This document shows positions 13,821-60,047 of a stretch of DNA of 64,000 nt, one piece after another. The stretch spans positions 11,408,001 through 11,472,000 of the forward strand of contig OZ024746.1 in the NCBI GenBank assembly GCA_964016885.1, written 5' to 3'. This stretch comes from Eledone cirrhosa. Taxonomy: Eukaryota. The translations under genes were made by a program, and so were the position numbers. The notes beneath the pieces were generated by a model. The model saw only the letters and a program-made list of their open reading frames with translations, was not told the DNA's origin and made no database searches. The stretch's first letter is position 1. Every line of letters starts with the position of its first letter.

Positions 13821-13938
13821 GTAATATCTGAAGAATTGCCAAATACAAACATAATGTGAATGAGTGAATAGAAAAAATATTCCTATGCAGTTCTTGTTGA
13901 TGATTATTTAATTGATAATGAAACACGTGTTAGATTAT
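13821..13938 (+). ncRNA. Degenerate type I hammerhead motif(s), Penelope-like pLTR remnant
   Basis: CTGAAGA at 13828 and TTGATGA at 13897; short stem ttat..ataa; GAAA-CACGTG-TT at 13920-13931; downstream aataaa. Confidence 0.4.
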
Positions 13939-14333
13939 TTAATCAAATAAATCTCTCTTTAAATTTTTCCTCACTCCTTGCCTGTTTTTCCTAATACAAT
14001 ATTCTATACTATATATATATCATTACCTCTCTTTCTCTCTTCCTTTCTCTCCCTATACTCTCAGAATGCCATTTTGACCCCCTCCCAGCCCCACTTCCCA
14101 TCACCTGTATAACTCCCTTTACCTTAGCACTAACCTCACCAATAATCTTCTCTTCATTTTTTCATTGTGTTGATCGCAATGCTTTATATATTAACTCCCC
14201 TTTCAGCTCATTCATGCACAAATTGTATTCATCTTATTTCCCTGCTCTGTATTTGCATTTGAAAGAATCTCTTCATTTTCTCCAGTTTGCTTTTTCCTCC
14301 TGTGACCTCTTGTTTGGTATTAATAATTTTAGT

Positions 14334-14459
14334 AGGTAACTTATTTTTCATGATATTTTATTGTCCCAGTCTGTTGAAAGACACCTGTCATAATGATTAT
14401 GATGACAGGTTTCTTTCAACACACTGGGACAAGAAAATATCATGAAAAATAAGGTACCT
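14334..14459. repeat. Palindrome with imperfect ~58-bp arms
   Basis: aggtaacttatttttcatgatattt...acctgtcat pairs with atgacaggt...aaatatcatgaaaaataaggtacct. Confidence 0.85.
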
Positions 14460-14717
14460 TATTTTGTATATTTGTCCCTCATGTTATTTATCTGCCCGTA
14501 GCTAGATTGTTAGCTGCAGATACACTATAAACCCGGTACCACCATTCACATTGAAACCAGATTATATAACCTATAGTACTGGCTGAAGAGGAGACATTGT
14601 TTCCTGTATTGTGTCTGTGTCTTATACATATTTCATCTCTGTTGTGCTATTTTGATGATGAGGATGATACACAGTATATATTTTAGTTTAGTACTGTTAT
14701 TGATATCTATATACTAT

Positions 14718-15055
14718 GGAGGCACATGGCTTAGTGGTTAGAGCATTGGCCTTGCAATCGAAAGGTTGTGAGTTCAATTCTCAGACCGGGTGATGTGTTG
14801 TTTCCTTGAGCAAGACACTTTATTTCACATTGCTCCAGTTTACTCAGCTGTAGAAATGAGATGATAGGACTGGGGTCCCTATCATTCCACTGCAAAGTGG
14901 TCGTGGAGGCGCCACGGCAAAAAAGCACCCAGCACTCACTGTAAATGAGGTTGGTGTTAGGAAGGGCATCCAGCTGTAGAAATCAAGCCAGAATCAGTTC
15001 CCATCCCACCCTTGCAAGCAGGGAAAAGCGGACGTAAAATGATGATGATGATGAT
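14718..15055 (+). mobile_element. Full-length tRNA-derived SINE (family 2) with an RTE-derived 3' end and (ATG)n tail
   Basis: Box A tggcttagtgg and box B gagttcaattc; the last ~40 nt match the 3' end of the RTE at 28823-28875; near-identical copies at 24292 and 53601. Confidence 0.85.
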
Positions 15056-15104
15056 ATTGAACTAAGTTAGAGGTGATAAAAGGACATAACATCAACACAG
15101 CACA

Positions 15105-15265
15105 GGGTCCTGTCAGAAGCAACCATCTTGCTTGGAGTCTACCCCTGGGTCTCCTGTCGTTTGGTTTTTCCCGTAAAATCTGTCCAGTGATTCTTTCCTG
15201 AGAGATTCTAACCACATGCCCATAGTATCGGAGCTGTGATCTCTCAATCCAGAGAAGTAATAGGG
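15105..15265 (-). mobile_element. RTE LINE 3' fragment
   Basis: ORF 14994-15293 reads IERSQLRYYGHVVRISQERI...RRPRGR. Confidence 0.7.
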
Positions 15266-15552
15266 ATGGCACTCTTCTGACAAGAAGTAGCAATCAACAA
15301 TTAGTTTAGTTTATATACTAAAACCTCAACGAATCCTATTTGTTTTGTAACGTACAAGATTTTTACTACTGTTTTGTTATGTGTAATGTTTTTAGTGTCT
15401 AAAGAAAATTATCACAGGAATGTTACTGCTTAAAATAAAAATCTCACCAAATAAGTGGTGGGGTTGGAATGAGAGTGGGGGGGGGGGTATTCGAGACCTG
15501 AGAGTATGTGTACATATAAATATATGTATGCATAATATGCCCCCCACCCCCT

Positions 15553-15830
15553 CCCACTGCAAAGTGGTCGTGGAGGTGCCACAGCAAAAAGGCACCCAGC
15601 CCACACTGTAAAGTGGACATGTAGGCGCCACACAAAAAAAAAAGCACCCAGCACTCACTGTAATTGAGGTTGGTGTTAGGAAGGGCATCCAGCTGTAGAA
15701 ATCAAGCCAGAATCAGTTCCTGTATGAGCAAGACAAGGTCAGCCGACTGGACACTGCCCACAACAGGACAACCTGTCTAACCCATGCTAGCGTGGAAGAA
15801 CGGATGTAAAACGGTGATGATGATGATCTA
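15553..15830 (+). mobile_element. 5'-truncated SINE (family 2 body) with an alternative RTE-B-like tail
   Basis: Shared core gttggtgttaggaagggcatccagctgtagaaatc; tail acccatgctagcgtggaagaacggatgtaaaacggtgatgatg; similar copy at 52625-52785. Confidence 0.65.
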
Positions 15831-16497
15831 TATCATCATCATCATTTAACTTCCATCTTCCACGTTAGCATGGGTTACGCGGGTTTGTCCCACTTGAGGC
15901 AAGATTGGTCGGGTGACCATGTCTCGCTCGTATATATATGCATATATATTTGTGTATATATATATATATATATATATTTGTGTATCTGATTAGTTCTTTT
16001 GTTACTTTGGTATTGTATGGTTGGGTTTTGCCTACCGCAATTTTCAATTTGTCAAGCTATTTAAACGTATTGTAGGTCGACTTTGCTTGGCCACAGCCAA
16101 AGCTTCGATTTTACTAAGCTTCCACTTGTATTATATATATTTATGTGTGTGTGTGTGTATTTCTAAGAGCACCCATATCAGTTGGATATCCTTGCATCTG
16201 TGTTTATTTTAATTTTCTTTTTTTTTTCTTTTTTTTTTTTTTCTATTTCTAGATACAATGTAAATATCTTATTTTTCAGGCTGAAATTATCTCGTTCTTG
16301 CTCAGACAATAACTACTTTAAAAAAATAGAACCCAAAACAATGGCAACAAAAAACAAACTACATATGCCAGTGATGATGTTGGCAGTAAGCTAGAAGGCT
16401 TCAAGGGAAACCTTCCATTTTCAACTTCTTTCTAATTTTTATCTACTTAAAATTCTTTACTGAATGTATTGTCACTGTTGAACGAATGGAAACACTA

Positions 16498-16530
<33 letters not shown>

Positions 16531-17298
16531 CAGCTCTCTCTTTCTCTCTTAAACACACACAGGCTTAGCTAGAAAGTTACTATCATATTTTATAATTTTA
16601 TTTTTTCCTTGTACTGTGACTCACTATTTCCTCTGTTAAAAATGTCTATTTATAAAGGAGACCTATCAGTGAGTTTCTCTTGATGCTTACACAAAACTGA
16701 AGAGTATAAGCCTGCTTTTGTTTGGTTCAAAGAAAAAGGCAGTTCTTTATCTTTCTTGAAATGCAGAGTTAGGATAAACTATAATGATTATGATAAACAG
16801 AAAAGAACATTTGATGATTTAGTCAGTTAATTCTACCTATACCTACATAGCTGCTAAATAAGACTGCAAACTAAGCAACAATTGAGTTTCTTAAACATAT
16901 TTCTAACATATTTGTTTGTGAATGTGTGTGTCTACGTGTGAGCATGTATGTGTATGTGTGTGTGTTTCTTTATAGATTTGGCATTGTGTCCATTATTTCA
17001 AAACTATTACTTAACACACATTCACTCTTTTAGTTACATATCTAGATTCCTCTATTGGCAGCTTGTTTGCTGTATACCCACTCCATCTAACCCCACTTAA
17101 TTTAACCTATCTCTCCTCTTCCTCGTTATAGACCCTGTAAATATGCCTTTTACATTTTTCAAGGTCATTGAATATACTACAGATAAACAGTTGACCTTGA
17201 CCTTGACCAGCAATGATTATATATTTAGGTCAGTTGTTGATAGTGTATATCATCATCATCATCATCATCATTTTATGGCCGCTTTTCCCTGCTTGCAT

Positions 17299-17652
17299 GG
17301 GTAGGTCATATAGTATATGGGTAGGTCATATAGTATATAGGTAGGCCATAGAGTATATTGGTAGGTCATATAGTATATAGGTAGGTCATATAGTATAAGG
17401 TAGGTCATATAGTATATAGGTAGGTCATATAGTATATAGGTAGGTCATATAGTATATAGGTAGGTCATATAGTATATTGGTAGGCCATATAGTATATTGG
17501 TAGGCCATATAGTATATTGGTAGGTCATATAGTATATTGGTAGGCCATATAGTATATTGGTAGGCCATATAGTATATTGGTAGGCCATATAGTATATTGG
17601 TAGGCCATATAGTATATTGGTAGGCCATATAGTATATTGGTAGGCCATATAT
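17299..17652. repeat. 20-bp minisatellite, about 17 copies
   Basis: Unit ggtagg(c/t)catatagtatat(t/a); it starts at an RTE tail remnant (17251-17300). Confidence 0.95.
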
Positions 17653-18124
17653 ACAAGGCCATGATATAATTACCTGTTTCTTGACTCCATCAAAATAAAA
17701 TACAATGGTATATAAACATTGAGTGTATTTGGGTGGTAATATATTGCCCAGTTTAACACCACCATCTGACCTTTGAGGGCCTTTAGCAAAGTCCACACTG
17801 TTGCAAGCACTTGAACTAAGTCTTCAATTTGAGGGCAGCTTCCTCATTCCATTCCACCTGTCCCAGAGGCCCTGGAAAGGTCCATAAGTTCTGTCCTTCT
17901 CTCACTGACTATATATTTTTAAAAAATAGTTACTATGATTCTGACATAATAAAATTGACTTAATTTATCAGTCACTGAAATCTCAAAAGAGGAATGACCT
18001 GTGAGAAAAGACTAACAACACCAATTACCTTCTGTTTCTAGACAAATTCAATTTTTAATTGTCCTTTACAACAACTAGAATTATCAATAGTTTTTCTCTC
18101 ACCTATTTAATGACTAAGCAGTTA

Positions 18125-18355
18125 TTAACCCTTTAGCATTTACATTGCTCTATATATATACTATTGTATTTTTGTGGTAAAGGCTTTATTTTACATAATT
18201 ATCTCACATAATATTGAATTTATGAGATTTTGATATTATTTATTTTGAGAACAATACCTTAACATCAGTATGAGTGGCTGATTACAGCCGGTTTGAACAG
18301 AAAGAGGTGAGAGAATCATGGCTGGATATGTCCAGTTTAAATGCTAAAGGGTTAA
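18125..18355. mobile_element. piggyBac-like MITE
   Basis: TTAA-CCCTTTAGCATTTA ... TAAATGCTAAAGGG-TTAA: a perfect TIR with TTAA target sites. Confidence 0.85.
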
Positions 18356-18921
18356 TGACCATGGAGTTGTTGGTTTCTTTACCTTATTTATCATATCTTT
18401 AGTAATGGGAAATATGGTGTTTTTGTAGGAATGGGTGAGTTATCAAACTAAATATCTTAGGCTATTTAGTTTTGTTCTTCTCTGTTTTAAGTTCACTTCT
18501 TACTGAAGTCTATTTTATTTTTCCTCTTTTCAAGGTCTATAAAATACATACAATGCTTGTTTTATAAACCAGCATTACTGGTAAGAAAGGTGATGTATTC
18601 AGAGAGAGTAAAACATTAGACTAACCCAGTGACATAATGTGGGAAATCATTATACCTTTATTGATGTATAACAGATTAGTTTCAGTTGTTTTATTGTCTG
18701 TAGTTAAATCTAAATTACTGTATAAACTTGAATATAAGCTGAGGAATCGATGGTAAAATTGTGTTGGGGGTCGGTGGCTTATATTTTGGGTCAATATTTT
18801 GATGATTGTCACCAACTCCAAATTCTATGTAATTAAAGTGCTTAATTATCTGGAGTGATTGTTTCACAATGAAACCCTGTTTTTCTACATTTACTTCATC
18901 ATCAGGAGCTTTATTTATGCA

Positions 18922-19782
18922 CTAGCAGTAAAGCCCGGCGTTGCTCGGGGTCGCTCAGTAGCTGTGTTAAAGTTACAGTGTTAAGTTTCTTTCTTGGCTT
19001 AAAAACTGTAGTGTCTACTGTGCAGACTTGCATGTGGTGTTTTTGATTAATATTCCCTCAACCAACAATATGCCTTATGAAGTTAAGAAAACATAACGAT
19101 AACCCGAATGTTATAACAAAAGAGGATGCTGGGGATAGAAACTGCACTGGTTATTTATTAACAAAGATCGAAAATGTAAACACTGCAACGCAGAGAAAAA
19201 CATTAGCGTAACCAAATTATCAGTTATGTCTGTCTGCACGCCTATATCACCTCTCTGCACGACTGTCTGTCTGCACGCCTATATCACCTCTCTGCACGAC
19301 TGTCTGTCTGCACGCCTATATCACCTCTCTGCACGACTGTCTGTCTGCACGCCTAACGACGAAATATTTGCTTGTTTTACGTAGTCTTTATATAGACTTG
19401 TTTTCAAGTAAAAATATTGTTTTAAAATGCTTTTAAATGGAAATGAAGCAAAACGGAAGCTTAGTGTTCGAACTGATGAATTTTGCAGGTCAATATTTTG
19501 CTGGCTCGACAACTGTTAAAGCCAGCGTAATTTTTTACGTAAGACGCTCAATGTAAACAGAACAAAGGGAAATAACTGATAACTTATGCTCAAAAATCGA
19601 TACATTATATTCGATTTCGTCACATAGAGTGGGTCAATTTGAAATTTTTTTTTTCCGATGTCTTCGCTAGGGCTCAATGTACAAGTATAGCAATTTCGGT
19701 GCAATTCCGTGAGAGATTCTAAGAGGAGATGTGTGCCAAAAATCGATAGACAGACAGACAACCACAGTTTTATATATATAGA
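18922..19782 (-). mobile_element. Non-autonomous Helitron
   Basis: The minus strand starts TCTATATATATAAAA and ends with a GC hairpin (cccgagcaacgccggg) ~10 nt before CTAG. It sits between A and T, without a TSD. Confidence 0.85.
19227..19354. repeat. 37-bp tandem repeat (~3.4 copies) inside the Helitron
   Basis: Unit tgtctgtctgcacgcctatatcacctctctgcacgac. Confidence 0.9.
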
Positions 19783-20086
19783 TTGCCTTGAGAACATTCC
19801 CACAAAGTTTTATTATTTGCACTTTTTAATACATAAATATACGCTATATATAAACACAAACATAAACACGTGCACTGACTTACATAATTATACTTTTTCT
19901 TTCAATCTTGTTTTGTTTTATTTCACTTGCTTTCTCTTTCCTCTCTCACCCTTTTCTCTCTCTCTCTCTCCTCCCCCCCCCCCCCTCTCTCTCTCTCTTG
20001 CTGTAAACATCTACCTAAAGCTTTAATACCTGTACAACATTAAATTGTTTTCAAGTTTTTCATGGTACACATTTCATTCAGTGTGT

Positions 20087-20660
20087 ATCATCATCATCAC
20101 CATCATTTTATGTCTGCTTTTCCCTGCTTGCAAGGGTGGGACGGGTCCTATTCAGCACAGCATCTCTCCACTTGTCACGGTCCTTTGTCATCTCCACCGT
20201 GAGCTTCAGCAATCTGAGGTCTGTTCTCACCACCTCCGCCCATGTTTTTCGTGGTCTACCTCTACTATGTCTTCCTTCAACTGGCATTTCCTGGCACTTC
20301 TTCACCCATCGGTCATCCTCCATATGCATCACATGTCCATACCACCGCAGTCTCCTCTCTCGCACACTTCATTCTATCCCTCTCAGACACAGTTTCTCTC
20401 TCAACACATCCATGCTGGGTTGTTCACACACATTGACATTGCACAACCAACGGAGCATGCTTGCCTCATTTCTCTCCAGCCGTCGCATATCCTCTGCAGT
20501 TGCTGCCCAAGTCTCACTACCATGCAGCATCGCGCTCCTCATACAGGCATCATATAACCGGCCTTTTGTACGCAGAGAGAAACCCTTCTTCGTCAGCAGA
20601 GGAAGTAGTTCCCTAAACTTCTTCCAACCCGTCCTTATTCTAGATACTATGGCCTCGGAT
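20087..20660 (-). mobile_element. RTE family A 3' fragment
   Basis: Highly similar to 28305-28875 (RERRLRWYGHV...TRPTLASREK); (CAT)n tail. Confidence 0.9.
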
Positions 20661-21912
20661 GTGGTATATTAGATAAAAATCTGTTACATTCAAGAGATAG
20701 AGCTATTGTCTGCTTTAAAAAAAAATACAAAATACTCCCAACATTGGAGTATGCAAAAGTAAACAAAAATTCAAGAAACTTGAAACTTTATAAAATGGAT
20801 GAAAGGGTAAAAAGTCATTATGTAGTGGAGTTGTGAAACAAAAACTATACTCTAAACAACACTTAAAATATCATTTTAAATATCAAATTATTAAAGCATC
20901 TTAAATATTTTCTCCACTCGTGAGAATTTCAAAACAGTACCATAATGTGTTGATGAGCTGCCATGGCTTATAAACAAGATTAGGATTTTTGTCCATTTCT
21001 CAGACTCAAAATAGGGGTTCGGGGTCGGTTTATATTTGAATATATAATTCAAACATAAATTACTCCAACATTGAAGTATAACTACAAAGTATTCAGTCAA
21101 AAATTATCTGTAGACAGAAGAGTCAACTATATTGTGAGGAGCTTACATTACATCACATAACAATCATTGAATCGGTGATGGGTCAATGTGACATGATAAC
21201 TCAACTTTCTAGAAATAGCAGCTAAATCTCTCAAATAATATGCTACCATCTTATGAAAAAGAGGACATATTGGGTATTTTAGTCTGGGGTGTACTTTGCA
21301 AATATGGAATGGTTACAGTTATAGCTAAAATGATTTTGATTAGGGCTGTTGACCTTGGACCTAAACAACCACTGCATGTAACATGTGAAGTGATGTCCCC
21401 AACTAGTTGGACATATGCTATATCTGAATACTTTACACTGGTTGATACACATTTTGCTGGCTTAGGTTTTGTTATTTTTAGCTAATTTTGAGGTGCTAAT
21501 TTCACATATGGCCTCCATTTCCCCCTAACACATCAGGTTTTCATGTTTGTCTTTCGCTTGGCTATCCCATAAACACGGGAAATGCAGATATTTTGTATAA
21601 CCTTGTTGGCCAAGTGAAAACTTAACGTGATAGAAAAAAAGTATTGTCATTTTTAAACTCAGGGGCCCCAAATTATTCAAGAACAGGTCTCAAACTTTGG
21701 TCAGTAGAAAAATAGCTAAATTTTGTTGACTAATGTTATATATCTGTGGATTGCACCTGGATATGTATTTCACTGGCTACATATATGCCATAAATCTGTT
21801 GAATTGGGTTTGATCTCAGTCTACACAGCAATCTAATTACATACAGTTTGTGGCAAGTAAGGTAACATTGACTCTAGTGCAATGAAAGAGAGAACGCTGT
21901 CTGCTTCCATGA

Positions 21913-21949
<37 letters not shown>

Positions 21950-23446
21950 TGCATATAAACAGATGTTATGAACTGAAATCACTTCACTCCAACATTTTTC
22001 TTATTTGTTATTTGTTTTACAAGTATTTGTTTTGCTGTTGTTTATTTTTGTGTCTGCAGTCTGATCTCTAATATAGCAAGTTTTGACCTAATTTCTAGAT
22101 TTGCATTTTGTCTTTATATAGTCAGAGATTTCACTATACACACACACATGCATAAGTACATTTAGATGTATGTAAATATATGCGTGTGTGTATGTATATA
22201 TATATATGTATATATATATATATCAACATATATATGCTTTGTGCTTGCATGCATTAATAATGTAGCCAAATTCATATTTTTATCTCAACTCCTTAAAAAA
22301 AAAATTGTTTTTTTTCCATAATCAAATAATCATCTTCTCCAATGGTTTATTTTGTTTCTCCTCCTCCATTGTGCAATGTCAATGCAGAGAAATGTCTAAG
22401 TAGATATGGCATTGCACTACTACCTCAAAAGTCTTCAGTGCAACTAGTCAACTGCAAACAGTTTGTGATATATATACATACAGAAAGAGAGAGAGAGAAT
22501 GCATGACTCTCTCTCTCTCTAAATATATCTTTCAAATTTGAATTATTGATGCTCTGAACTAAGGTCCATTGAGCTTATTTAAAGGGAAACACGGTTATCA
22601 TAAATATTAAATATGTTTTGATACCTTAACCTTGTATATGTGTATATATATATGATGGCTGCCCCCTCGTTATCGAGTATGGCCATTGCACGATATACCA
22701 TTATCAATTAATTCTATCGTGCAATGCTTGTGCATGAAGACATTTTTTAAAGTGAGGAAAGACTGTGCACTGAGCCAATCCCACTCTCTGAGCGACAGTA
22801 GCTATAACCCGAAAAGAAGAAAAGATCAACATCATCGGTAACTACTGAGCCGCAGGTTTTATATCAGAGTTATCCCAGTTTCCTGAGATGCCTTCTCCTA
22901 CATACACACGAACAATACAATACAATTCTGATATATTAATTTAATGCTTCATCTAGTAATGAAATGGTTTTGACGTTTCAGATGCTAGTTCTTCATCGAA
23001 AGATTGAATGAGAGAGAGAAGAGAGCATGTTTGAGAGAGAAAAGAAGAAATAAGAAGATAGACAAAGATAAGAAAAGAAAGTAAATGGGAAAAAGATAGA
23101 TAAGAGAGAAACATAAGTTGTTGTTAGTCAACCATGTGTGTATATATATATATATATTTTTAATATAGAGTACCTTACTTACTGTGGTTACCCCCAAAAT
23201 TGAACCCGGGATAAACTTATATATATATTATTTATACACATATATATATATATATATATATTATTTACGTCTTTGCTTACAATGTCAGAACATTTCTCCA
23301 CTGATATATTAAAACAGTCATAAGTCTATTAAATGTTTTAATAATAATCCTCGTCTTAATATTCATTATACATTTAGTAAGGTTATATGAATAAACTAAT
23401 GGTGATTCTCTGATACCTCGTTCCTACTTATTTTAATATATATATA

Positions 23447-24286
23447 CAGGGTACGGACTATATTTGTTCGCAAGATTACTGTCTAGGAAAAAATAACACA
23501 GTAGTTTTATTTTTTAAGATATATTTATCAAACTCGGGTCAGTTTGTCTTCATGACTTGTTCTTTCGATCTCACTCGATAAACCCGCCATTGGCTTTGAT
23601 GACGGCTTCAAGACGGCCTCGGAACCGGCTACAGGCCTTCGTCACTGTCCCCCGACTTAGGTCCCTAAAGGCACTTGTGATCCTAGCCTTCAGATCATCT
23701 TTCGTATTGCAGCTAGATCTGTTGGTGTCTCGTTCCACTGCGCCCCACACAAAGAAGTCGAGGGGGTTGCAGTCAAGCGAGCTGGGAGGCCAGATGTCAG
23801 GTGAAGTGTGGTCGACGAAGTTCTTTGACAGCCAGGCTTCGGTCTTTCGGCTGGTATGGCAGGGCGCTGAGTCTTGCTGCCACATGTATGGCCTACCTGC
23901 AGCTACATGGTCGATCAAGGGCTTTACTACCTCGCTCAGAACGCGGATGTAGCCATCGGTGTTCAGCTTGAGGCCCTCAGGGAAGAAGTGAGGTGGCATG
24001 ACGTCACCTTGACAGCTGACGACACCTAAGACCAATTTTGTCGCTGGAAACTTTGTCTGCATGACTCTGGGCATGTCTTTGGATGAGACACCATTCTCCT
24101 GCTGACGCTGAGAAAGCCTGAAATTTCCTTGTCTCCATGTCTCTTCCACAAATTTGGAGGTTCAAAATTATTCATAATCAATTATATAGTCACTGTTTTT
24201 ATGAAGACAAGAGTGACAACGAAAGTAAAAAAAATTTGTGTAAAATTAGCAATTGAAAATTGCGAACAAATATCGTCCTCACCCTG
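23447..24286 (-). mobile_element. Internally deleted Tc1/mariner element of the DD37D (maT) group
   Basis: TIRs cagggtacggactatatttgttcgcaa / ttgcgaacaaatatcgtcctcaccctg with TA flanks. ORF 23571-24149 has QQD...WPPSSLDCNPLD, with 37 residues between the last two Asp. Confidence 0.9.
23571..24149 (-). pseudogene. Truncated DD37D transposase (short N-terminus joined in frame to the C-terminal catalytic part)
   Basis: 192 aa; lacks the paired/HTH DNA-binding domain and the first catalytic Asp. Confidence 0.8.
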
Positions 24287-24291
24287 TATAT

Positions 24292-24634
24292 GGAGGCACA
24301 TGGCTTAGTGGTTAGAGCATTGGCCTTGCAATCGAAAGGTTGTGAGTTCAATTCTCAGACCGGGTGATGTATTGTTTCCTTGAGCAAGACACTTTATTTC
24401 ACATTGCTCCAGTTTACTCAGCTGTAGAAATGAGATGATAGGGACTGGGGTCCCTATCGTTCCACTGAAAAGTGATCGTGGAGGTGCCACGGCAAAAAAA
24501 GCACCCAGCACTCACTGTAAATGAGGTTGGTGTTGGGAAGGGCATCCAGCTGTAGAAATCAAGCCAGAATCAGTTCCCGTCCCACCCTTGCAAGCAGGGA
24601 AAAGCGGACGTAAAATGATGATGATGATGATGAT
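24292..24634 (+). mobile_element. tRNA-derived SINE (family 2) with an RTE-A tail
   Basis: Near identical to 14718-15055. Confidence 0.85.
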
Positions 24635-24650
24635 ATATATATATATATAT

Positions 24651-27388: not shown

Positions 27389-28875
27389 AAGGAGATGCTT
27401 TGGAGAGGAGCAATTATAGGGGTATAAAACTGATAGATCAGGTTATGAAAGTGGCAGAAAGGATTTTAGCACAACTAATTAGAGAAAGGGTCAAACTAGA
27501 TGAGATGCAGTTTGGTTTTGTGCCTGGGAAGAGTACAACAGATGCCCTCTTCTTGGTGAGACAAATGCAAGAGAGGTTCTTAGAGAAGAATAAGCCACTA
27601 TACTTAGCCTTTGTTGACCTAGAGAAGGCCTTTGATAGGGTACCCCGATCCGTCATCTGGTGGTCCCTAAGGAAGCTGGGTGTTGAGGAATGGCTTGTGA
27701 GGACAGTGCAAACTTTGTACAGAGGTACTCTCAGTAAAGTCAGGGTAGGAATGGAGTTTAGTGAGGAATTCCAGATACAAGTAGGAGTACATCAGGGTTC
27801 GGTCCTCAGCCCGCTCTTGTTCATTATAGTCCTCCAAGCCATAACAGAGGAGTTTAAGACTGGCTGTCCATGGGAACTTCTCTATGCTGACGATCTGGCT
27901 CTTATGGCAGAATCAGTAGAGGAGCTAGAGAATAAATTCTGGCTATGGAAACAGCAGTTGGAATTAAGAGGACTGAGAGTGAACCTAGCTAAGACAAAAG
28001 TGTTGATGAGTAGAAAAGAGGACAAAACCCTGATTCCGTCAGGGAAATGGCCATGTTCGATATGCAGAAAAGGAACTGGCATAAATTCTATAAAATGCAC
28101 ACAATGCAGATCCTGGGTACACAAGAGATGTAGTGGAATAGCAGGCAAACTAACAGGTAGGGAGAAATATGTATGCAGTAGATGTACAGGGAAATTAGAC
28201 AGTAGAAGTTGCACTGATAGACACATTTTTCAAATGCGAGAGGGCGCTATAGAAGTGGTGGATAGCTTCCGGTACCTAGGAGATCAGATTAGCATGGGAG
28301 GAGAGTGTTCCGAGGCCATAGTATCTAGAATAAGGACGGGTTGGAAGAAGTTTAGGGAGCTGCTTCCTCTGTTGACGAAGAAGGGTTTCTCCCTGCGTAC
28401 GAAAGGCCAGTTGTATGATGCCTGTGTGAGGAGCGCGATGCTGCATGGTAGTGAGACATGGGCAGCAACCGCAGAAGATATGCGACGGCTGGAGAGAAAT
28501 GAGGCAAGCATGCTCCGTTGGATGTGCAGTGTAAATGTGCGTGAACGACCCAGCATAAATGTGTTGAGAGAGAAACTGTGTCTGAGAGGGATAGAATGTA
28601 GTGTACGGGAGAGGAGACTGAGGTGGTATGGACATGTGATGCGCATGGAGGATGACCGATGGGTGAAGAAGTGCCAGGAAATGCCAGTTGAAGGAAGACG
28701 TGGTAGAGGTAGACCACGAAAAACATGGGCGGAGGTGGTGAGAACAGACCTCAGATCATTGAAGCTCACGGTGGAGATGACGAGGGACCGTGACGAGTGG
28801 AGAGATGCTGTGCTGAATAAGACCCGTCCCACCCTTGCAAGCAGGGAAAAGCGGACGTAAAATGATGATGATGAT
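27389..28875 (+). mobile_element. 5'-truncated RTE LINE (family A) inserted in (TA)n
   Basis: Uninterrupted ORF; stop codon immediately followed by an (ATG)n tail; (TA)n on both flanks. Confidence 0.95.
27400..28860 (+). CDS. RTE reverse transcriptase with a PHD-like Cys-rich insert (partial ORF2, no true start codon)
   Basis: Motifs NYRGIKL, QFGF, DLEKAFD, GVHQGSVLSPLLF, YADD and FRYLG; CSIC..CTQC..HKRC..CSRC cluster. Confidence 0.9.
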   Translation: MERSNYRGIKLIDQVMKVAERILAQLIRERVKLDEMQFGFVPGKSTTDALFLVRQMQERFLEKNKPLYLAFVDLEKAFDRVPRSVIWWSLRKLGVEEWLVRTVQTLYRGTLSKVRVGMEFSEEFQIQVGVHQGSVLSPLLFIIVLQAITEEFKTGCPWELLYADDLALMAESVEELENKFWLWKQQLELRGLRVNLAKTKVLMSRKEDKTLIPSGKWPCSICRKGTGINSIKCTQCRSWVHKRCSGIAGKLTGREKYVCSRCTGKLDSRSCTDRHIFQMREGAIEVVDSFRYLGDQISMGGECSEAIVSRIRTGWKKFRELLPLLTKKGFSLRTKGQLYDACVRSAMLHGSETWAATAEDMRRLERNEASMLRWMCSVNVRERPSINVLREKLCLRGIECSVRERRLRWYGHVMRMEDDRWVKKCQEMPVEGRRGRGRPRKTWAEVVRTDLRSLKLTVEMTRDRDEWRDAVLNKTRPTLASREKRT

Positions 28876-29429
28876 ATATATATATATATATATGATCAAA
28901 ATGACACAAATAAACAAGATAACCTGAATGAACAAAGTATACAAAAAAATGTGTGCCAAAACATAAACAAAGTGTATAGAATGAAAATATTTACACAGAA
29001 TGGAAAGAAGAGAAAAGGATGTGACATTTCAGGTTCAATTCTTTATCATGGTAAGAAAGATGAAATAAGATAAGTGTTAGACCAATCCGAATTTTGGTGT
29101 ATTAAACTGCTATATGCACTCTCTCATACACAAAAACATTGTGAATATATATGAATTTATATACCCTATACAATACATAGAAATGGGAAAGATTGTTTGT
29201 GCAAGAGGGTGGGGAAAAAAATAAAGCAAGACTGACAGATAAGGGAGAACATTTAAAACAAAATTGAAGGACAAAGAACACAGTTTAACATAAGAAAATG
29301 ACATGTTTCACCTCCTGATGAACTATTTATGTAGCTTTTCTCACTCCTACTCTACTAGAACTTTCAGTGTTTATATATCTCCTTTCATGAAACTACCCTA
29401 TTTACCTCTGGATTTACAGATTCATCTCA

Positions 29430-30088: not shown

Positions 30089-30284
30089 TATGTGTGAGTT
30101 TCTACTTCTGTTTTATTATGCTTATATCACCAATGAAATACTACTATTAGTAACAATTTCATTTTTTTTTCTTCATTTCATTATCATTTAAAGTAGTCCT
30201 TCTCCATCTCTAGTTGTGTTGCTATTGATTTTATTGTCAGTTATGACTTACTCTGCTGTATTTAATAATAATGATAATGGTTTC

Positions 30285-30520
30285 TGACTTAGGCACAAGG
30301 CCAACAATTTTTGAGAAAGAGGGAGAGAGAGGGGGGGGGGGATCAATTAAATCGACCCGAGTGTTAAACTGGTACTTTATTTTATTGACCTCTTAAGGAT
30401 GAAAGGCAAAGCTAACCTCCTGCCAAGGTTAGCGTTGCCTTTCATCCTTACTGGGTCAATAAAATAAAGTACCAGTAATAAACTAGGGTTGATTTAATCG
30501 ACTTTCCCACTTACCCCAAA
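30285..30520. mobile_element. Two 5'-truncated family 1 SINE copies fused head-to-head
   Basis: ctggtactttattttattgacc...aaggatgaaaggcaaagctaacct is mirrored by aggttagcgttgcctttcatcctt...ggtcaataaaataaagtaccag. Confidence 0.8.
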
Positions 30521-31698: not shown

Positions 31699-31731
<33 letters not shown>

Positions 31732-31734
31732 ATA

Positions 31735-31796
<62 letters not shown>

Positions 31797-31802
<6 letters not shown>

Positions 31803-31920
31803 GAAGGAGTTGTGGTAAGGAACCAGATGGACCATAACACACCAGAATATTCAATACAAAATGTCCAGAAATAGCTGTCGAAACGGCTTGAGCTCTGCCG
31901 TCGGGGTCATACTTTTTCCT
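31797..31920 (+). mobile_element. Short (TA)n-embedded repeat family, possibly Penelope-like
   Basis: Homologous minus-strand copies at 47622-47772 and 37234-37288; all are flanked by (TA)n. Confidence 0.6.
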
Positions 31921-32057
31921 ATATATATATATATTTATATATATATATAAGTAAATGTGTTAGGAAAAACATACAAGGCATGATTTTACCAACAAAAAAT
32001 AAAAACTATCTTATCTTATATATATTTGTGTGTGTATATATATATATATATCATCAT

Positions 32058-32104
<47 letters not shown>

Positions 32105-32211: not shown

Positions 32212-32251
<40 letters not shown>

Positions 32252-35820: not shown

Positions 35821-35823
35821 ACA

Positions 35824-35856
<33 letters not shown>

Positions 35857-36058: not shown

Positions 36059-36941
36059 TACCTAACTATGGAAACATCTTGTTGAGTCAAACAACGCCGT
36101 ACGTTAAAACAATCCACAATACAGAGTACTCACAACCTCTAACTGGATTACCTATAACGATAACTTATCATCATCATAGACGTTAAACGATGATGATGAT
36201 AACAAGTTATTGTTATAAGTAATCCAGTTAGAGGTTGTGAGTACTCTGTATTGTGGATAGTTTTAACGTACGGCGTTGTTTGACTCATCATCATCGTTTA
36301 ACGTCCATCTTCCACGCTAGCATGAGTTTGGACGGGAATTTTCCCACTTGAGGCTAGATTGGTTGCCTTGCTCATATAGGTCTGGCGGGTTTTCTATGGC
36401 TGGATGCCCTTCCTAACACCAACCACGTTTACAGTGTGGACTGGGAGGTTATACCGTGTTACCTACACGGCCACATTACAGCGTGGACTGTGTGTTTTTT
36501 TGTCGTGACACCTACACAACCTCATTTGTTTCGGACTGGATGTTGTGGTACCAACATAACTTTACACCGAAAGGGGTGGTGTGGATAGGGTGGGGGTAGT
36601 GGGACAGGGGTGTATTTTTGTTAGAGGTGCCTACTGACTGTAGGTTTCGCTTTGCACTTAGGCAAGGCGGGTCTTCTGTATTACTGTGTAGCGCCAAAGA
36701 TCTCGGTCCAGTGACATTGTCTTGGAGAGGTGTAAGTGTGTGAGGTCGGAATTTATCAAGTCGTCCCAGGTTTTTCTGGGTCTGCCTACTCTGTGGCTAC
36801 CGTCTATTTTGATCGCCCTGCACTTTTTTATACAGCTGTCGTCTTTCATGCGCATCACGTGACCATACCAACCTAGCCTTCTCTCGAGTAAACAACATCT
36901 GATCTCTCTTATTCCTAACAAGAGGTTTCCATAGTTAGGTA
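36059..36941. repeat. Palindrome (~110-bp arms) whose right arm is split by an RTE-B insertion
   Basis: Left arm 36059-36166 pairs with 36204-36286 plus 36917-36941. Confidence 0.85.
36287..36916 (-). mobile_element. RTE family B 3' fragment
   Basis: ORF 36658-36921 is nearly identical to the one at 25351-25749; same UTR and (CAT)n tail. Confidence 0.9.
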
Positions 36942-36985
36942 GCGAGTTCGCGAGAATTCCTATGCAGGTTATTCTTGGAGTAATA

Positions 36986-37213
36986 ATAGTGAAAGATTGA
37001 AGAATAACATGGTCGGCTATGAAAAAAGGGTTTTATTTCAAGTATTAACAATTGTTTCATTGATCAGGTGAGTCTAAAGACCACTAATCACTCGAAGTTG
37101 CATCACTCGACCTTAAATATAGTGTTTACCTCTGATCAATGAAACAATTGTTAATACTTGAAATAAAACCCTTTTTGTACAGCCAACCATGTTATTCTTC
37201 GATCTTTCACTAT
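36986..37213. repeat. Inverted repeat (~82-bp arms, ~64-bp loop) carrying the 3' half of a hammerhead-like motif
   Basis: Arms at 36986-37067 and 37132-37213; GAAA-CAATTG-TT, then AATAAA, then (TA)n. Confidence 0.8.
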
Positions 37214-37283
37214 ATATATATATATATATATATATAGGAAAATAGTCAAGACCCCAACGGCTGAGCTCCAGCCATTTCGACAG

Positions 37284-37330
<47 letters not shown>

Positions 37331-53600: not shown

Positions 53601-53938
53601 ACACATGTCTTAGTGGTTAGAGCATTGGCCTTGCAATCGAAAGGTTGTGAGTTCAATTCCCAGACCGGGTGATGTGTTGTTTCCTTGAGCAAGACACTTT
53701 ATTTCACATTGCTCCAGTTTACTCAGCTGTAGAAATGAGATGATAGGGACTAGGGTCCCTATCATTCCACTGCAAAGTGGTCGTGGAGGTGCCACGGCAA
53801 AAAAGCACCCAGCACTCACTGTAAATGAGGTTGGTGTTAGAAGGGCATCCAGCTGTAGAAATCAAGCCAGAATCAGTTCCCGTCCCACCCTTGCAAGCAA
53901 GGAAAAAGTGGACATAAAATGATGATGATGATGATGAT
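53601..53938 (+). mobile_element. tRNA-derived SINE (family 2) with an RTE-A tail
   Basis: Near identical to 14718-15055. Confidence 0.85.
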
Positions 53939-53954
53939 ATACATCTATATATAT

Positions 53955-54327
53955 TTAAAAGTTAAACAAGGTTCAATGAAACATCAAAGAATGAGTTTTA
54001 CAATAGATTGAAAGCACTCAACTGAAAAGGTTTTCCAGAGTTATTAATATTAATTCAAAATATTAACAAAATAGATATTCTTGTGATCAATTATATTTTA
54101 TTATACATATTTCAGAGGTACTGAGTTAAGTTCAACAGTACGTCCTCATCAGATAAAATAAAATGATGCTGGTTACATATGTACACTATGTCAGGGTATG
54201 TCATGTATCATTTTATTTTATCTGATGAGGACGTACTGTTAAACTTAACTCAGTACCTCTGAAATATGTATAATAAAATATAATTGATCACAAGAATATC
54301 TATTTTGTTAATATTTTGAATTAATAT
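53955..54327. mobile_element. Palindromic hammerhead-bearing element with a one-sided tail and a probable TSD
   Basis: Arms at 54047-54167 and 54207-54327; extension 53955-54046; direct repeat atatacatctatatatat at 53937 and 54324. Confidence 0.75.
54214..54280 (+). ncRNA. Type I hammerhead ribozyme motif (mirror copy on the - strand at ~54094-54160)
   Basis: tattttat-CTGATGA-ggacgtactg..cagtacctct-GAAA-tatgta-TA-ataaaata: 8-bp stem I, gtactg/cagtac stem II. Confidence 0.7.
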
Positions 54328-55873
54328 ACATCTATATATATATATATATAAATGGGTGGGTAACACGTCTGATATTACTATAGGAGTGACTCAATGCCTG
54401 AGAGTCATTTTTGTAGTAATCTCAACTAATAAAAGATTATACATATTCTGTTTTATGTATGAAGTTCTCTTTCTCCCATTTTTAAAACTAAACGTACCTA
54501 TGTAATATATTATATTTCCGGAATTAATTATTCTTGCACAACACACTTTACATTAGGTAATTTGTTTAGTGTGGCTATATCAACAAATGTAAACACATTT
54601 TTATATCTCTCCATGGGCAGAAAAATATTGGGATTATTCTGATTAGTTTCATCCCTACTGTTGTGCATAAATAATTAATTAGTTAACCACATTGCCAATA
54701 TGCACATAATTAGCTATTTGTCATTAATCTCTCCATGGGTAGAAAATGAAGGTAGTTGGTTTCAGAAATTTCCCAGTAGAAATGAAAGTAGTCATGACAG
54801 TCACAATATTTTTTTTCTGCATATGTAGATGTATAAAAGTGTTTTTTGAAATTTCACCACCACCATCCCTCACCTCACCAAAGAAAGAAATTGTTGATAT
54901 ACCTACATTAAGAATTATATGTATGTATATATATACATATACATACATTGTATTATCAGTCAACACTATCAGACTGCCTGTATTATTGGATCTGATCTGA
55001 TGTTTGTATTATTAGTCAACACTATCAGACTGACTACTATCTGATCTGGCATTAGATTTGATCCGTGATTAGATCTGATTTGGAATCGAATCTAATGTCT
55101 GTATTATCTGCTTTGATCCAGGATCAGATCTGATGTCTGTATTATTAGTCAACACTATCAGACATCCTTATTATCTTATCTGATCCAGGATCGGATTAAC
55201 AGAGCTCTGTCTAACTCAGCTTGGCTTGGCTCTCTCTAAACTACCAATATTGTCCAAGGGAAAGGCAAAAGCTAATACAACTTGGCACCATTGTTGTTGC
55301 AACCCATTATATTTTCCAGCTGAGTGGATTATGATCATTGTAAAAGTAAAGTGTCTTGCTGAAGGATACAACACACTGGTTGTTCCAGAAATCGAGCTCA
55401 CAACCTCAGTTACAAGCCTACTACGCTTACAACTGAGATTTAAGGGAATTGTCATCACCATTTCTCAGGAATGTGAACACTAGTTAATGCTCCCTACACA
55501 CACACACACCTAACCTCCTCATAATGGAGTCATCCAGTTCCACACTGTAAACATGGTTGGTGTTAGGAAGGGCATCATCAAGAAAGTCAACTGACATTGT
55601 AATATAGTGGTATTTATATGTTTATGCACTCTTAATGTAGTTTGCAGAGATTCAGTGACAAGGTTGAGCCTTTGAATTACAGGTACAATTCATTTTTGCC
55701 AGCTGAGTGAACTGGAGCAATATGATATAAAGTGTCTTGCTCAAGGGTGCATGTCACTGGGAATTGAACTCACAATGTTATGATCTTGAGCTGAACACCC
55801 TAACCACAAAGCCATTCACCTACACAATATATATATATATATGTGTCTGTGTGTGTGTATTTGTATATATATA

Positions 55874-56462
55874 CAGGGTGTCCGCCAAAATGTATACACA
55901 CTTTGATTAGAATGCTGCTGAAATGTGTACATTTTTTGGGGACACCCTGTAAATCATCATCATCATCATCTTCGTTTAACGTCCATTTTCCACGCTAGCA
56001 TGGGTTAGACGGGAGTTGTCCCACTTGAGGCAAGGTTGGTCGGGTGACCGTGTCTCGCTCATATCGGACTATCTGGCAGGTTTTCTACGGCTGGATGCCC
56101 TTCCTAACACCAACCACATTTACAGTGTGAAACTGGGAACTTTTTACCGTGTTACCTACACGGCCACATTACAGCGTGGACTGTGATTTTTCTCGTTACA
56201 CCTACACGATCTCGATTTCGATCTCATCTCATTTATTTGGACTGGATGTTGTGGTACCAACTTTATTGAGAGAGGGTGGTGTTGGTGGGAGTGGGAGGAT
56301 AGGGTAGGGGTAGTGGATTGGGGTGTATATTTGGTTAAGAGGTGCCTACTGACTGTAGGTTTCGCTTTGTACATAAGCAAGGCGGGTCTTCTGTATTACT
56401 GTGTAGCGCCAAATTTCAGCAGCATTCTAATCAAAGTGTGTATACATTTTAGGGGACACCCT
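55874..56462. mobile_element. Tc1/mariner-type MITE ends enclosing an RTE-B 3' fragment
   Basis: cagggtgtcc...ggacaccctg (55874-55949), then RTE-B UTR (55953-56411), then an inverted ~50-bp copy of the left end (56413-56462). Confidence 0.75.
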
Positions 56463-56911
56463 CTATATATATATATACAAATACACACATGTTTGGATAT
56501 GCAAACATGAGGAAAAGTGGTTAATACCAAAGTAGAGTGTGGTATTTATTCATCATATTACTGAGATTACTTTCTGTTGTGAGTAATGTGCTGTTCAAGC
56601 AACTAAATATATTACAAAGTATAGTATATATGGCAAACATTATAGGTTTGTGTGTTGTCTATGAGAAGATAATGTGAGCAGTTATTGTGAAGAAAGCTAT
56701 GAACAATGTGAACAAATTGTTATATAGTTCTAAGTATATACAGAAGAAGAATTTCTTTGGCAAATATAAATTTAGATAATAATTCATGCTTACACATACA
56801 CATGAAAGGGATTAACTCATGCTTTGATGCTTAAGAAAATAACCTCCTTGGGATTCTGTTATCATAAGTTAAAATGTACTTAGTTAGTAAAGTATGGGAT
56901 GTTGTGTAGGT

Positions 56912-57210
56912 CAGTGCTTCTCAAACTATCTGATGTGGCGGACCAGCATTTTTTTTTTTTAATGTGTCACGTACCGCTAAAATTTCGTAGTTATATTATT
57001 TTATACCGGAAACGATATATATAATGAATATAATAATAGTTGACCATTTTTTTATCTTCTATTTATTTTGTAAACAAATAATACAATATCAAAACATAAA
57101 AAAAAATTCTCAAATGATTGCTTAGCATGGCCTGGAGACTGGCCACGTATCGGTAGCTGATGGCTCGCATACCGGCACCAGTCCGCGGACCACCACTTTG
57201 AGTAGCACTG
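56912..57210. mobile_element. hAT (Charlie-like) MITE
   Basis: TIR cagtgcttctcaaa / tttgagtagcactg; perfect 8-bp TSD gtgtaggt at 56904 and 57211. Confidence 0.9.
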
Positions 57211-57379
57211 GTGTAGGTTATGAAATAGAAGTAATTTTTCAATGAAATAGTTTTGTTTGACTTTCATTTCTGAAGGATTGATTCCAGTGCTTTTATATCC
57301 CTAATAATATGCTGGATGACAGGAACCACGTCTTGTAATGGTGGAAAGACAAAAACTTACCTGATACAGTCACATATGT

Positions 57380-57790
57380 AATAATGAAAATATTGTGTAC
57401 AGTGCTCAGGTGCACTACAACTCATCAAAAGTGTATGTATAGTACATAGTGTAATGTACAAACGTCAGGAAAATGAACAGTGCATGAGTCATGGTATATA
57501 CATGTGTGCATGTGTATGGAAAGGGGACATCAGATGTAGTTTTGGTGAATTTCGGGAAGCATGAGGGTTTTAAAGGATGCAGTGTTTCGGCAGCTAACAA
57601 CTGACGCAGGTAGTTTGTTCCATGCTTCAGCGACTCTAAGCGTGAAAAAATGTTTCCGAAAGTTATGGGAGCTGTGCTGTTTTCAGACTTTGTAGGCATG
57701 TCCACGTGTGTTAGGCACATGGAGATCAAAAAGGTGCTCAGGGTTGTTGTTGGCAAGATGGTTAGCCACAACTGTCCAAAAGGTACAGTT
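57380..57790 (-). mobile_element. CR1-like LINE 3' end
   Basis: The reverse strand reads TRGHAYKV..FRKHFFTLRVAEAWNKLPASVV..SFK; a second 3'-UTR copy lies at 62665-62880. Confidence 0.75.
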
Positions 57791-59475
57791 AAGGAAGAGG
57801 AAGACAATCCTGGTCAAAATACATCAAGGACTGGACAGGTTACAACACTCCAACCCTTCTGTGTGGCACCACAATAACTGCAACAGTTGCAGGAACTTGG
57901 TTGATTGATATCTTTAATGCTATAACTGTGCCTGGCTCATACGTTCCATTTTGGCATCGTTTCTGCAGCTTGATGCCCTTTCTAATGCCAACAACTTCAC
58001 TGTTTCTATAAAACAGTACAGTATAATTTGTAAGAGATATGGCTGCTGTTTCTAGCAGTTTGAGTGACTACATCTAGGATCCATTATTTTCTGAAACCAG
58101 TACTTATGTTAATTAGCCAGGTGAAGATAGATAAGACATTGTATGGCTACATAAGGTGTTTTAATAATTAAGTATTTTAAGATAGATCACTATTTTGATT
58201 CCAAATCCAGCCAGAGTCAAATTTACAGTTTGATAGGTATTATACCTTTTCAGAGGAATTTGGTAAATGAAAACTGCGCAGAAATTTGCTATATATGACT
58301 GTATTTGTGTCTGTTTTTACATTTATACCAGTATTATATACTAGGTTGGTGATAGGAAAAGCATTCAGCCACAGAAAACTTGCCAAAGAGTTGGGAGGAC
58401 ACTTCAGTTGTGTCGACATAATAGTCTCTCTAGTGGTAGTGTTTTACACACGATAATTGCACCCTGTACATGCTGTAAATGGGTTGGTGATAAGAAAGGC
58501 ATCCAGCCATAGAAAGCTTGCCAAACAAAGGGTTGGGGGACCTTTCAGTTGTGTCAAGGACATGACAACCTTCCTAGTGAAGTTGATAGAATGTAAGACC
58601 ATATGTAAGTGAGATGCAGACTCCCTAGCCTGTCTGGGAGGTCAGTAGCCCTTCTTGAATACTGATTTGGTCTATGCAAACCTGTCCAACCCTTGCTAGC
58701 AGGGAAAGTGGATGTTAAATGATGATGATGATATTGAGTCTGTTTATAGTCTATGAAATGAAGATTAATGTAATTAGTACTGGGGTTGATATGATTGACT
58801 AAAAACTTTTAAAATGGTGCTTCAGCATGGCCACAATCCAATGATTGAAACTAATGAAAGAATAATCTATAAACTTTAGTCCTGTACCTATCGGCAGAAT
58901 TGTCAGAGCATCAGATAAAATTTGTTGTAGAATTTCTTTCAGCTTTTGAGTTCAAATCCTACTGAAGTCAAAATAATGTACCAGTCAAATACTGGGATTA
59001 TTTAATTGACTAACTCCTCCCCAGAAACAATGTCTGTTTACAAAATTATTATTATTATAGTTCTGGGGTTGATTTAAGTCATTGTTCCTCTTCCCTCAAA
59101 TTTCTGGTCTTGTGCCTATATAAGAAAGTGTTGTTGTTGTTATTGAGGAACATTATTTTTAGAATTCTAATTAGGTTTTCCTTTCAATTTGACATCTTAT
59201 TGATTCCACCTGCCTCACAAAGAAGATGGAAAAGATGAGATATGAACTGTTTTGTTATAATTACTGCAGATGGATTCATTTATCATTAACTATTTACAGA
59301 CAGTCAGATGGTAACATTTTATGCAAGGTTTTAGATGAAAATACAACACATGAATGATAATGCAGTCAAATTTAGTTTGAGTGTTTAATATAGAATAATA
59401 AAAAGCAAAATACTGCAACCAACTTACACATATACATATGTAACCAGCATCAGTTGACATCTGTTTTTCTATGCT

Positions 59476-59480
<5 letters not shown>

Positions 59481-59552
<72 letters not shown>
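59481..59552. repeat. (TA)n microsatellite
   Basis: Direct inspection. Confidence 0.95.
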
Positions 59553-59556
<4 letters not shown>

Positions 59557-60047
59557 TAAAATAACAGATTAAAGTTTAAGCAAAGAATCGCTGCTTTCAC
59601 CCTTAACGGGATCTTCTAAAACTAACAAAGTCAATCTGTAAACGCAGAAGTGGATTTTAAAAAAAACGTTGCAACCGGAGGAAGACAGGAAAACGATACT
59701 TTGGTTCGTGGAAACGTTCCCTGGCAAAGAACGGGAAAAAACGAATATAATACGTCATTAATAGGAGCGGTGAAAAACAATTACGCGCAAAGACAGAACC
59801 ACGTTTGTGGTATAAAAGAGGTCGTAGACTAGTATTCTCTTAGGTGGTTCATAGAGACGTTCTCTGGCAATGAACGAAAAAAACGAAGATAATACGTCAT
59901 ATGTGGAGCGTAATTGTTTTTCACCGCTCCTATTAATGACGTATTATATTCGTTTTTTCCCGTTCTTTGCCAGGGAACGTTTCCACGAACCAAAGTATCG
60001 TCTTCCTGTCTTCCTCCGGTTGTAACGTTTTTTTAAATATCCACTTC
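59552..60047 (-). mobile_element. Penelope-like pLTR remnant: 140-bp inverted repeat, then degenerate hammerhead, AATAAA and (TA)n
   Basis: Arms at 59647-59786 and 59908-60047. The minus strand 59623-59573 reads agttt-TAGAAGA-tccc gttaa gggt-GAAA-gca..tgc-TT-aaact. Confidence 0.6.

Follow-up and report, generated by a model that had tools for sequence, protein, structure and literature searches.

The window analysed in this work is a stretch of 64,000 nucleotides (nt) of Eledone cirrhosa DNA (contig OZ024746.1, positions 11,408,001 to 11,472,000 of the forward strand), drawn from a genome of 3.0 Gb and rich in AT, microsatellites and repeats. It contains seven inverted repeats, located by self-BLAST of the window, whose arms, scored as matches and mismatches over the aligned bases, are 92-99.5% matched. 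We propose, with a probability of roughly 65%, that those carrying hammerhead ribozyme motifs are head-to-head ends, known as pseudo-long terminal repeats (pLTRs), of Hydra- and Neptune-type Penelope-like elements (PLEs), likely remade at each insertion by two reverse transcription events on the same source RNA. The features are listed below with arm matches and mismatches in brackets; the clade names are those suggested by sequence motifs.

14334..14459, no strand assigned: palindrome G (54/5), old and near-unique, no hammerhead, left unassigned as to PLEs
36059..36166, forward: second piece of family E tail, in opposite orientation, forming the 36080-36290 palindrome (85/6), no hammerhead
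36200..36984, reverse: two segments of the family E tail, 36917-36984 and 36200-36290, with an unrelated repeat between them at about 36285-36909
36986..37139, reverse: inverted arm of family E, Hydra-type (palindrome 36986, 70/5), ending before the 5' core of the hammerhead
37132..37213, forward: direct arm of family E, 3' half of the hammerhead only; (TA)n at 37211-37236
39832..39917, reverse: inverted arm of family A, Hydra-type PLE (palindrome 39832, 84/2), no tail; core at 39886, predicted cut after 39848 (GUA)
39918..40012, forward: direct arm of family A; TATAAATA at 39921-39928; hammerhead 39950-40000, core at 39956, predicted cut after 39994; RNA start predicted at about 39950, the first base of helix I, from the pile-up of 5' ends
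40013..40083, forward: family A tail, 71 nt, on one side only, then (TA)n at 40084-40095
40445..40634, reverse: inverted arm of family B, Neptune-type PLE (palindrome 40445, 189/1), no tail; core at 40593, predicted cut after 40565 (CUU)
40633..40825, forward: direct arm of family B from the predicted RNA start at 40633, no tail; centre base 40635, hammerhead 40672-40710
53955..54045, reverse: family C tail, 91 nt, on one side only
54047..54169, reverse: inverted arm of family C, Hydra-type (palindrome 54047, 121/2); core at 54152, predicted cut after 54102 (AUA)
54185..54327, forward: direct arm of family C after a junction filler of 15 nt; hammerhead 54214-54280, core at 54222; (TA)n at 54333-54350
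59553..59909, reverse: 3' end of family F, Hydra-type (palindrome 59647, 136/4); hammerhead 59623-59573 with the variant core TAGAAGA at 59618; (TA)n at 59479-59552
59908..60047, forward: inverted partner arm of family F, its outer 94 nt and hammerhead missing

Hammerheads were sought in the window with our own descriptor of the type I ribozyme, requiring a strict core and controlled by 40 dinucleotide shuffles of the same sequence. Five strict-core motifs were found (both arms of B, both arms of C and the left arm of A), against a shuffle mean of 0.075. The right arm of A has the same core and falls below the cut-off of the descriptor, one substitution shortening its helix II, and the motif of family F surfaces only when the core is relaxed. 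No hammerhead was detected by the descriptor in the 14334 and 36059 palindromes, and an Rfam scan of the window returned none at E<=1, its best matches being microRNA models below threshold. The likeness to the type I ribozyme lies in the sequence of the CUGANGA/GAAA/NUH core and in helices I-III, and the cleavage sites listed above are predictions. A CTGAAGA..GAAA string at 13828 was considered as a further hammerhead and rejected, since it fails the descriptor.

To which elements these arms belong was examined in their genomic copies. Searches with single arms gave 2051 first-look candidates for A, 287 for B, 244 for C, 1438 for F and 1746 for E, of which 40 were scored per family; the best 30 loci per family were read and, after 6 second arms of already counted insertions had been dropped, 144 distinct loci remained. 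The five families (A, 39832; B, 40445; C, 54047; D+E, 36059 and 36986; F, 59647) are pseudo-LTR ends of protein-coding PLEs, of which A, C, E and F appear, from their motifs, to be of Hydra type and B of Neptune type. In natural copies every hammerhead family connects to an open reading frame (ORF) for reverse transcriptase (RT) and endonuclease. Upstream of family F lies an open frame of 709 amino acids with RWR, DKT, YRDD, CxCx5C and YIG motifs and no CCHH, which has 347 relatives at E<=1e-20 and whose protein model (pLDDT 94) finds its best PDB match in telomerase reverse transcriptase (TERT; E 1.7e-9, TMq 0.34). An inverted arm of family A passes through the tail into the start of an ORF (loci L017 and L175) that is about 50% identical to that of F and bears RWR and DKT. 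Upstream of families C and E lie endonuclease pieces of Hydra type, only the thumb and endonuclease parts being seen; for C the link beyond about 1.5 kb is given by a single copy, with CNC followed by a frameshift, and the E piece carries CxCx5C. Family B is represented by a full pLTR-ORF-pLTR copy (L161), whose 5' end carries a partial pLTR in inverted orientation, and its Neptune-type protein, with a Pfam RVT_1 match of 3e-6, shows GLKF, DKG, YLDD, a cysteine linker and the residues of a CCHH-type endonuclease. One linker cysteine is Y in the sole insertion seen, where CX2-5CxxC is expected for the Neptune clade.

Motifs of the IVY..YIG type are present in F, C and E. Pfam recognised no GIY-YIG domain in F or B and did so in a neighbour 45% identical to the C-terminal half of B; the domain does not stand out separately in the fold search. 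A single ORF with a telomerase-related RT upstream of the repeat was found for F, B and A, and tandems in which a pLTR with its hammerhead is followed by the ORF start for B (L161) and A (L017 and L175). Copies end at (TA)n in 134 of the 144 loci, against a background of 5-12%; among the Hydra-type families the counts are 28/30 for A, 27/28 for C, 25/29 for E and 30/30 for F. In sequencing runs X5-X9, which carry five other organism labels, 34-51% of the words of the B pLTR are present, so close relatives of this family exist in other species.

The core is intact (CUGANGA/GAAA/NUH) in 40/54 loci in A, 26/27 in B, 25/28 in C and 0/30 in F. The 30 copies of F comprise 17 with CAGAAGA, 8 with TAGAAGA and 5 unscored, and none has CTGAAGA, a variation at core position 4; in E, where helix II spans about 70 nt, the scorable copies mostly read CCGATGA, differing at the same position. 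Predicted folds of the full palindromes reach -159 to -301 kcal/mol with the core wholly paired, and in single arms folded alone the core is unpaired with a probability of 0.52-0.72; full hairpins are therefore predicted to hide the ribozyme core.

Much of what a sequence-only reading had earlier said of this DNA agrees with these results. The seven repeats it listed were all recovered, as were complete cores on both arms of three palindromes (with the right arm of A below our cut-off) and a 3' half-hammerhead at 37141; its statement that no RT or GIY-YIG frame accompanies the palindromes agrees with tblastn with two PLE proteins, which at 1e-6 detected no PLE ORF in the window. Its statement that a hairpin masks its own ribozyme accords with the predicted folds, and its suggestion of inverted pLTR remnants of PLEs that target TA with the ORF links and (TA)n ends described above. 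Other points needed amendment. The repeats are mutually unlike except for 36059 and 36986, which form one family, the 36059 palindrome being built from the approximately 155-nt tail of E. The mutated core reported at 59573 exists and is a family-wide variant, and the adjoining (TA)n is absent from the left end of palindrome A in the window.

The arrangement of the copies bears on how the palindromes arise. Inverted partners were found in 75 of the 144 loci (A 12/30, B 17/27, C 20/28, E 18/29, F 8/30); the lists were curated by hand, with one tail call set manually, and 14 loci whose minus-strand match was a microsatellite or an internal piece were excluded. Exactly one arm carries a tail in 68 of the 75, both arms in 3 and neither in 4, and the proportion is 57/63 without family A, whose query held the tail. 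In the 68 one-tail loci the tailed arm is the one shorter on the inside in 30, the longer in 25, and equal in 13. Junctions of long copies are mostly unique. In the window, the E junction is an 8-nt overlap within the long helix II, and the same junction occurs in loci L122 and L123. The exact B centre of the window recurs 566 times genome-wide and the minimal A centre 96 times, with loops of 1 nt and 0 nt, respectively.

For each of A and B the first 40 loci with identical centres were read (for A, two loci read earlier were skipped). One tail is present in 38/40 A loci and in all 26 of the 40 B loci in which both arms are intact. Relative to the odd centre base of B, the tail lies to one side or the other in a ratio of 17:15 (p=0.86). 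Between B arms the distance is 1.9% within a locus and 4.8% between loci; letters seen exactly twice lie within one locus in 11/15 cases, against 2% expected, and loci L328 and L349 each have a private indel in both arms. In family A at least five subfamily types have the same junction, and arm types are concordant in 21/24 scorable loci. Identical centres recur independently, remade from many source elements, and are not clones, as follows from private variants common to both arms, several subfamilies per junction and the random phase of the tail. In addition, three B junctions (L325, L326 and L353) have a short duplicated 5' end on one arm, with two or three tandem starts, which suggests repeated slippage or re-annealing at the ends of the cDNAs.

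A further regularity concerns the 5' ends of the copies, which cluster 29, 31, 31 and 31 nt downstream of a TATA box in families A, B, C and E. The distance from a TATA box to the start of the RNA is usually about 30 nt, and on this ground we infer that the hotspot is the RNA start site. In family B, 20/27 hit arms end within -4 to +8 nt of one site, 31 nt below TATAAAA, with CCAAT-type boxes upstream. For family A the hotspot was predicted beforehand to lie at TATA+29, where helix I of the hammerhead begins, and 24/30 loci end there (a manual count, with a query starting just below the site). Samples taken consecutively in chromosome order gave the hotspot stop in 7/14 A insertions and in 9/27 loci of a sister family of A, in which the spacing to the TATA box is kept despite a diverged spacer. 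No partner arm starts within 3 nt of the ribozyme cut site in B (0/17), C (0/15) or E (0/17), that is 0/49 with very short copies under-sampled, which fits an uncleaved RNA as template; one E hit arm (L135) begins exactly at that site. The summed depth of contigs rises about 40-fold and about 10-fold at the B hotspot in two sequencing runs, a weak hint that is unfit as a measure of copy number. The genome-wide share of arms retaining upstream sequence (487/12,723) was rejected as a measure of the hotspot, since the sister family, with different upstream sequence, dominates it. The 12,723 exact genome matches of the A and sister-family pattern show a strand excess, 7836 forward against 4887 reverse, which could reflect a large tandem array of hammerhead units resembling a retrozyme-like satellite.

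These observations can be joined in the following scheme. A TATA promoter within the pLTR would start an RNA at the hammerhead or a short way upstream of it, and the protein of the element would nick both strands of (TA)n. One nick would prime an outer RT start, yielding the tailed arm, and the other an inner start, yielding the tail-less arm, both on uncleaved RNA. The two starts look paired, because uncoordinated starts would leave one tail in at most half of the loci. Both cDNAs would reach the 5' end of the RNA or fall off sooner, and their 3' ends may then anneal by microhomology: in family A through the self-complementary AGCT, leaving a 0-nt loop, and in family B through an overlap of 5 nt that is mismatched (T-T) at its centre. 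Repair of this mismatch in either direction would account for the 17:15 phase. Short products without a TATA box, folded into hairpins that are predicted to hide the core, would likely be dead ends, and solo pLTRs that bear the promoter could act as sources in trans. The full form of this scheme, in which pLTR promoters make a short RNA that starts at or close to the hammerhead it carries, and in which the PLE protein, probably a dimer, makes two copies of this RNA from nested starts and joins the cDNAs end to end, is put forward tentatively, at slightly less than even odds. Twin priming of the L1 element is a comparable mechanism; in the present model, however, both arms cover the same RNA end.

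Several observations weigh against this reading. Of the 40 B loci with identical centres, 14 have one arm truncated at its outer end, the T-side arm in 10 of them and the A-side arm in 4. The partner arm of F in the window is cut short in the same way, and two outer initiations cannot account for such arms unless internal priming or later deletion is invoked. The hotspot is looser in C (12/24 hit arms within -4 to +8 nt) and E (5/15), and none was found in family F when looked for with a short query. Gene conversion between arms could partly produce the variants common to both, and the top-scoring loci form a biased sample.

The truncated B arms would sit well with snap-back self-priming, in which the cDNA, or an antisense template as already proposed in print (PMC3846280), folds back and is copied, an endonuclease later trimming one tail. 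Such priming would also account for the palindromic centres and for the variants common to both arms. The geometry, however, speaks against it: a copied arm is nested in its template and cannot hold the sole tail, yet in 30/55 loci the arm that is shorter on the inside bears the tail, and in 15/32 B loci only the T-side arm is tailed. Hairpin priming needs a loop of about 3 nt or more, and the 0- and 1-nt loops of the two commonest centres are too tight to prime. Snap-back would be viable only if both arms began with tails and one was then removed at random, and we regard it as unlikely. Nor do we favour an origin after insertion, in which a single (TA)n tract receives two separate insertions, or repair brings about an inversion, and gene conversion then homogenises the palindrome. 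Nested PLE pieces of many families do share crowded tracts, and the 36059-36290 palindrome resembles two adjacent tail pieces; yet the centres lack (TA)n, recurrent junctions are exact to the base, and independent insertions predict one tail in at most half of the loci where 26/26 were observed, all of which makes this origin quite improbable.

The sequence-only reading had preferred non-autonomous, ribozyme-only foldback elements moving as entire palindromes, and had offered identical junctions at many copies as a check. The check was passed, with 566 exact copies for B and 96 for A, and 26/40 B loci have one overall layout; it does not discriminate, though, as the same junctions arise independently. 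Tailed B arms are no nearer to other tailed arms (4.8%) than to the tail-less arms of other loci (4.75%), the phase of the tail is random, the indels of L328 and L349 are private to those loci, at least five A subfamily types meet at one junction, and short copies have no TATA box. The fixed ends and arm-specific lineages of a Foldback-like or MITE-like (miniature inverted-repeat transposable element) descent from one palindrome were not found in the identical-centre A and B loci. A mobile palindrome is largely refuted and is, in our estimate, highly improbable. As for a fold-back artefact of the assembly, the whole palindrome is spanned by no read or contig; the two arms are nevertheless not identical, tails occur on one side only and the flanking sequence is unique. 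Moreover, in a short-read contig of a second sample the inverted B junction appears at the hotspot as a loose end, and two contigs, possibly from the assembly's own sample, join the right end of B to its unique flank with no differences, which leaves an artefact a negligible chance.

Two RT events on one source RNA, the reading preferred here, can be set beside systems already described, as far as the available portions of the sources go. For the Hydra clade, inverted 5' copies, one-sided tails, hammerheads and a bias for (TA)n have been reported (Craig et al. 2021, PMC8557442), and the supplement of that paper includes an octopus family as well as a copy (Penelope-13_HM) that has hammerheads on both strands and an inverted copy on its 5' side. 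The families studied here resemble that clade in the ORF of about 700 amino acids with a C-terminal endonuclease, RW[K/R], DKT, CxCx5C and no CCHH, in the (TA)n target and in a type I hammerhead near the 3' end. Family F reads RWR and extends over about 3.2 kb from the ORF start, and the 3' untranslated region of C is about 2 kb; unlike the 30-40 bp tails described there, those found here measure 43-155 nt, and F and E differ in core position 4. By what route PLEs acquire their inverted repeats and tails is stated as an open question in PMC8557442, and the available text of that paper mentions neither a start-site pile-up nor a one-tail count. Family B resembles Neptune-type PLEs in its GLKF, DKG and YLDD motifs, linker, endonuclease and pLTR-ORF-pLTR layout with the 5' inverted partial pLTR; its substituted linker cysteine is a departure, and since the clade was assigned by motifs, Nematis is possible.

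In Adineta vaga, Penelope elements likewise have head-to-head inverted pLTRs that contain TATA and initiator-like (Inr-like) motifs, with palindromic overlaps and an optional one-sided tail (Arkhipova et al. 2013, PMC3846280). Few copies are described there, explained by self-priming on an antisense template, whereas in E. cirrhosa hundreds of junctions are identical to the base and the geometry argues against self-priming. The protein of the Poseidon PLE PAc is predicted to form a dimer; in vitro it cleaves both strands and extends them on uncleaved RNA, with two RT start sites flanking the tail (Frangieh et al. 2024, PMC11167929). The paired starts proposed here match this behaviour, although PAc belongs to a different clade and inverted junctions are left unexplained in the available text of that report. 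Non-LTR retrozymes are also non-coding, PLE-derived and equipped with a type I hammerhead (Li et al. 2026, preprint, 10.64898/2026.07.22.740005). They form head-to-tail tandems with at least two ribozymes in the same orientation, in contrast to the elements of the window, which are head-to-head or single, with one sense ribozyme per strand and no such tandem. Hammerheads that occur in pairs, on opposite strands and separated by 100-700 bp, have been noted as well (PMC4209133). A start-site pile-up, a one-tail count or an end-to-end model was not reported in the literature searched, a set to which most subscription papers, earlier Arkhipova reviews and the supplements of PMC11167929 and PMC3846280 do not belong.

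Other features of the window lie around these palindromes. Palindrome G has three candidates genome-wide, with partial matches of 72-83%, and a core remnant at 14583 lacking GAAA. Fragments resembling PLE ends, absent from the list of the sequence-only reading, stand between TA tracts at 37237-37287, 31800-31925 and 47618-47770, with a family tail resembling that of A, and at 23164-23214; they include one lone A-type tail piece. The family at 37237, 31800 and 47618 looked hammerhead-like, yet in the fetched loci a pattern search returned no complete motif. Palindromes without a hammerhead at 30343-30501 and 15723-15932 belong to common repeats, with 213 and 258 BLAST matches, respectively, in fetched loci; a perfect hairpin with 25-bp arms and no hammerhead lies within an RT fragment at 61619-61673, and a further hammerhead-free palindrome at 62570-62606.

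On the forward strand, 40885-41841 is a long acidic, serine-rich frame that follows a splice-acceptor-like AG near 40890, ends in a stop and has no Pfam match; it is likely a last exon. As palindrome B ends about 55-65 nt upstream of it, palindromes A and B may be intronic hairpins. The surroundings also include an RT frame of a non-PLE long interspersed nuclear element with a PHD-like finger (27391-28860, forward), a frame that by eye resembles a piece of Tc1/mariner transposase and has no Pfam match (23571-24161, reverse), and three tRNA-headed copies resembling short interspersed nuclear elements, 95-97% identical (14715-15038, 24289-24614 and 53584-53918). A weak match to a thrombospondin type 1 repeat at 3951-4094 (forward; E 3.5e-4, below the cut-off) may mark an exon. 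About 4 kb of degenerate (TA)n at 48200-52100 has G and almost no C on the forward strand (GC skew 0.84-0.98).

As elements, these families fall within known PLE clades as ordinary members and are no new element class, and the palindromes are by-products of theirs, not a new mobile unit. Identical junctions at hundreds of copies therefore need not signal a mobile unit, and such loci could be misannotated as MITEs or microRNA hairpins. Countable rules, namely one tail, the start-site pile-up, loop-less centres and random phase, separate competing models of PLE insertion, and they yield predictions, for the existing in vitro system, of the exact 5' ends of the RNA and of the junction products. 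If the end-to-end rule is true, it would replace antisense self-priming as the origin of the inverted repeats of PLEs, and the loci would be genomic snapshots of both RNA ends, preserved as hundreds of dispersed perfect hairpins.

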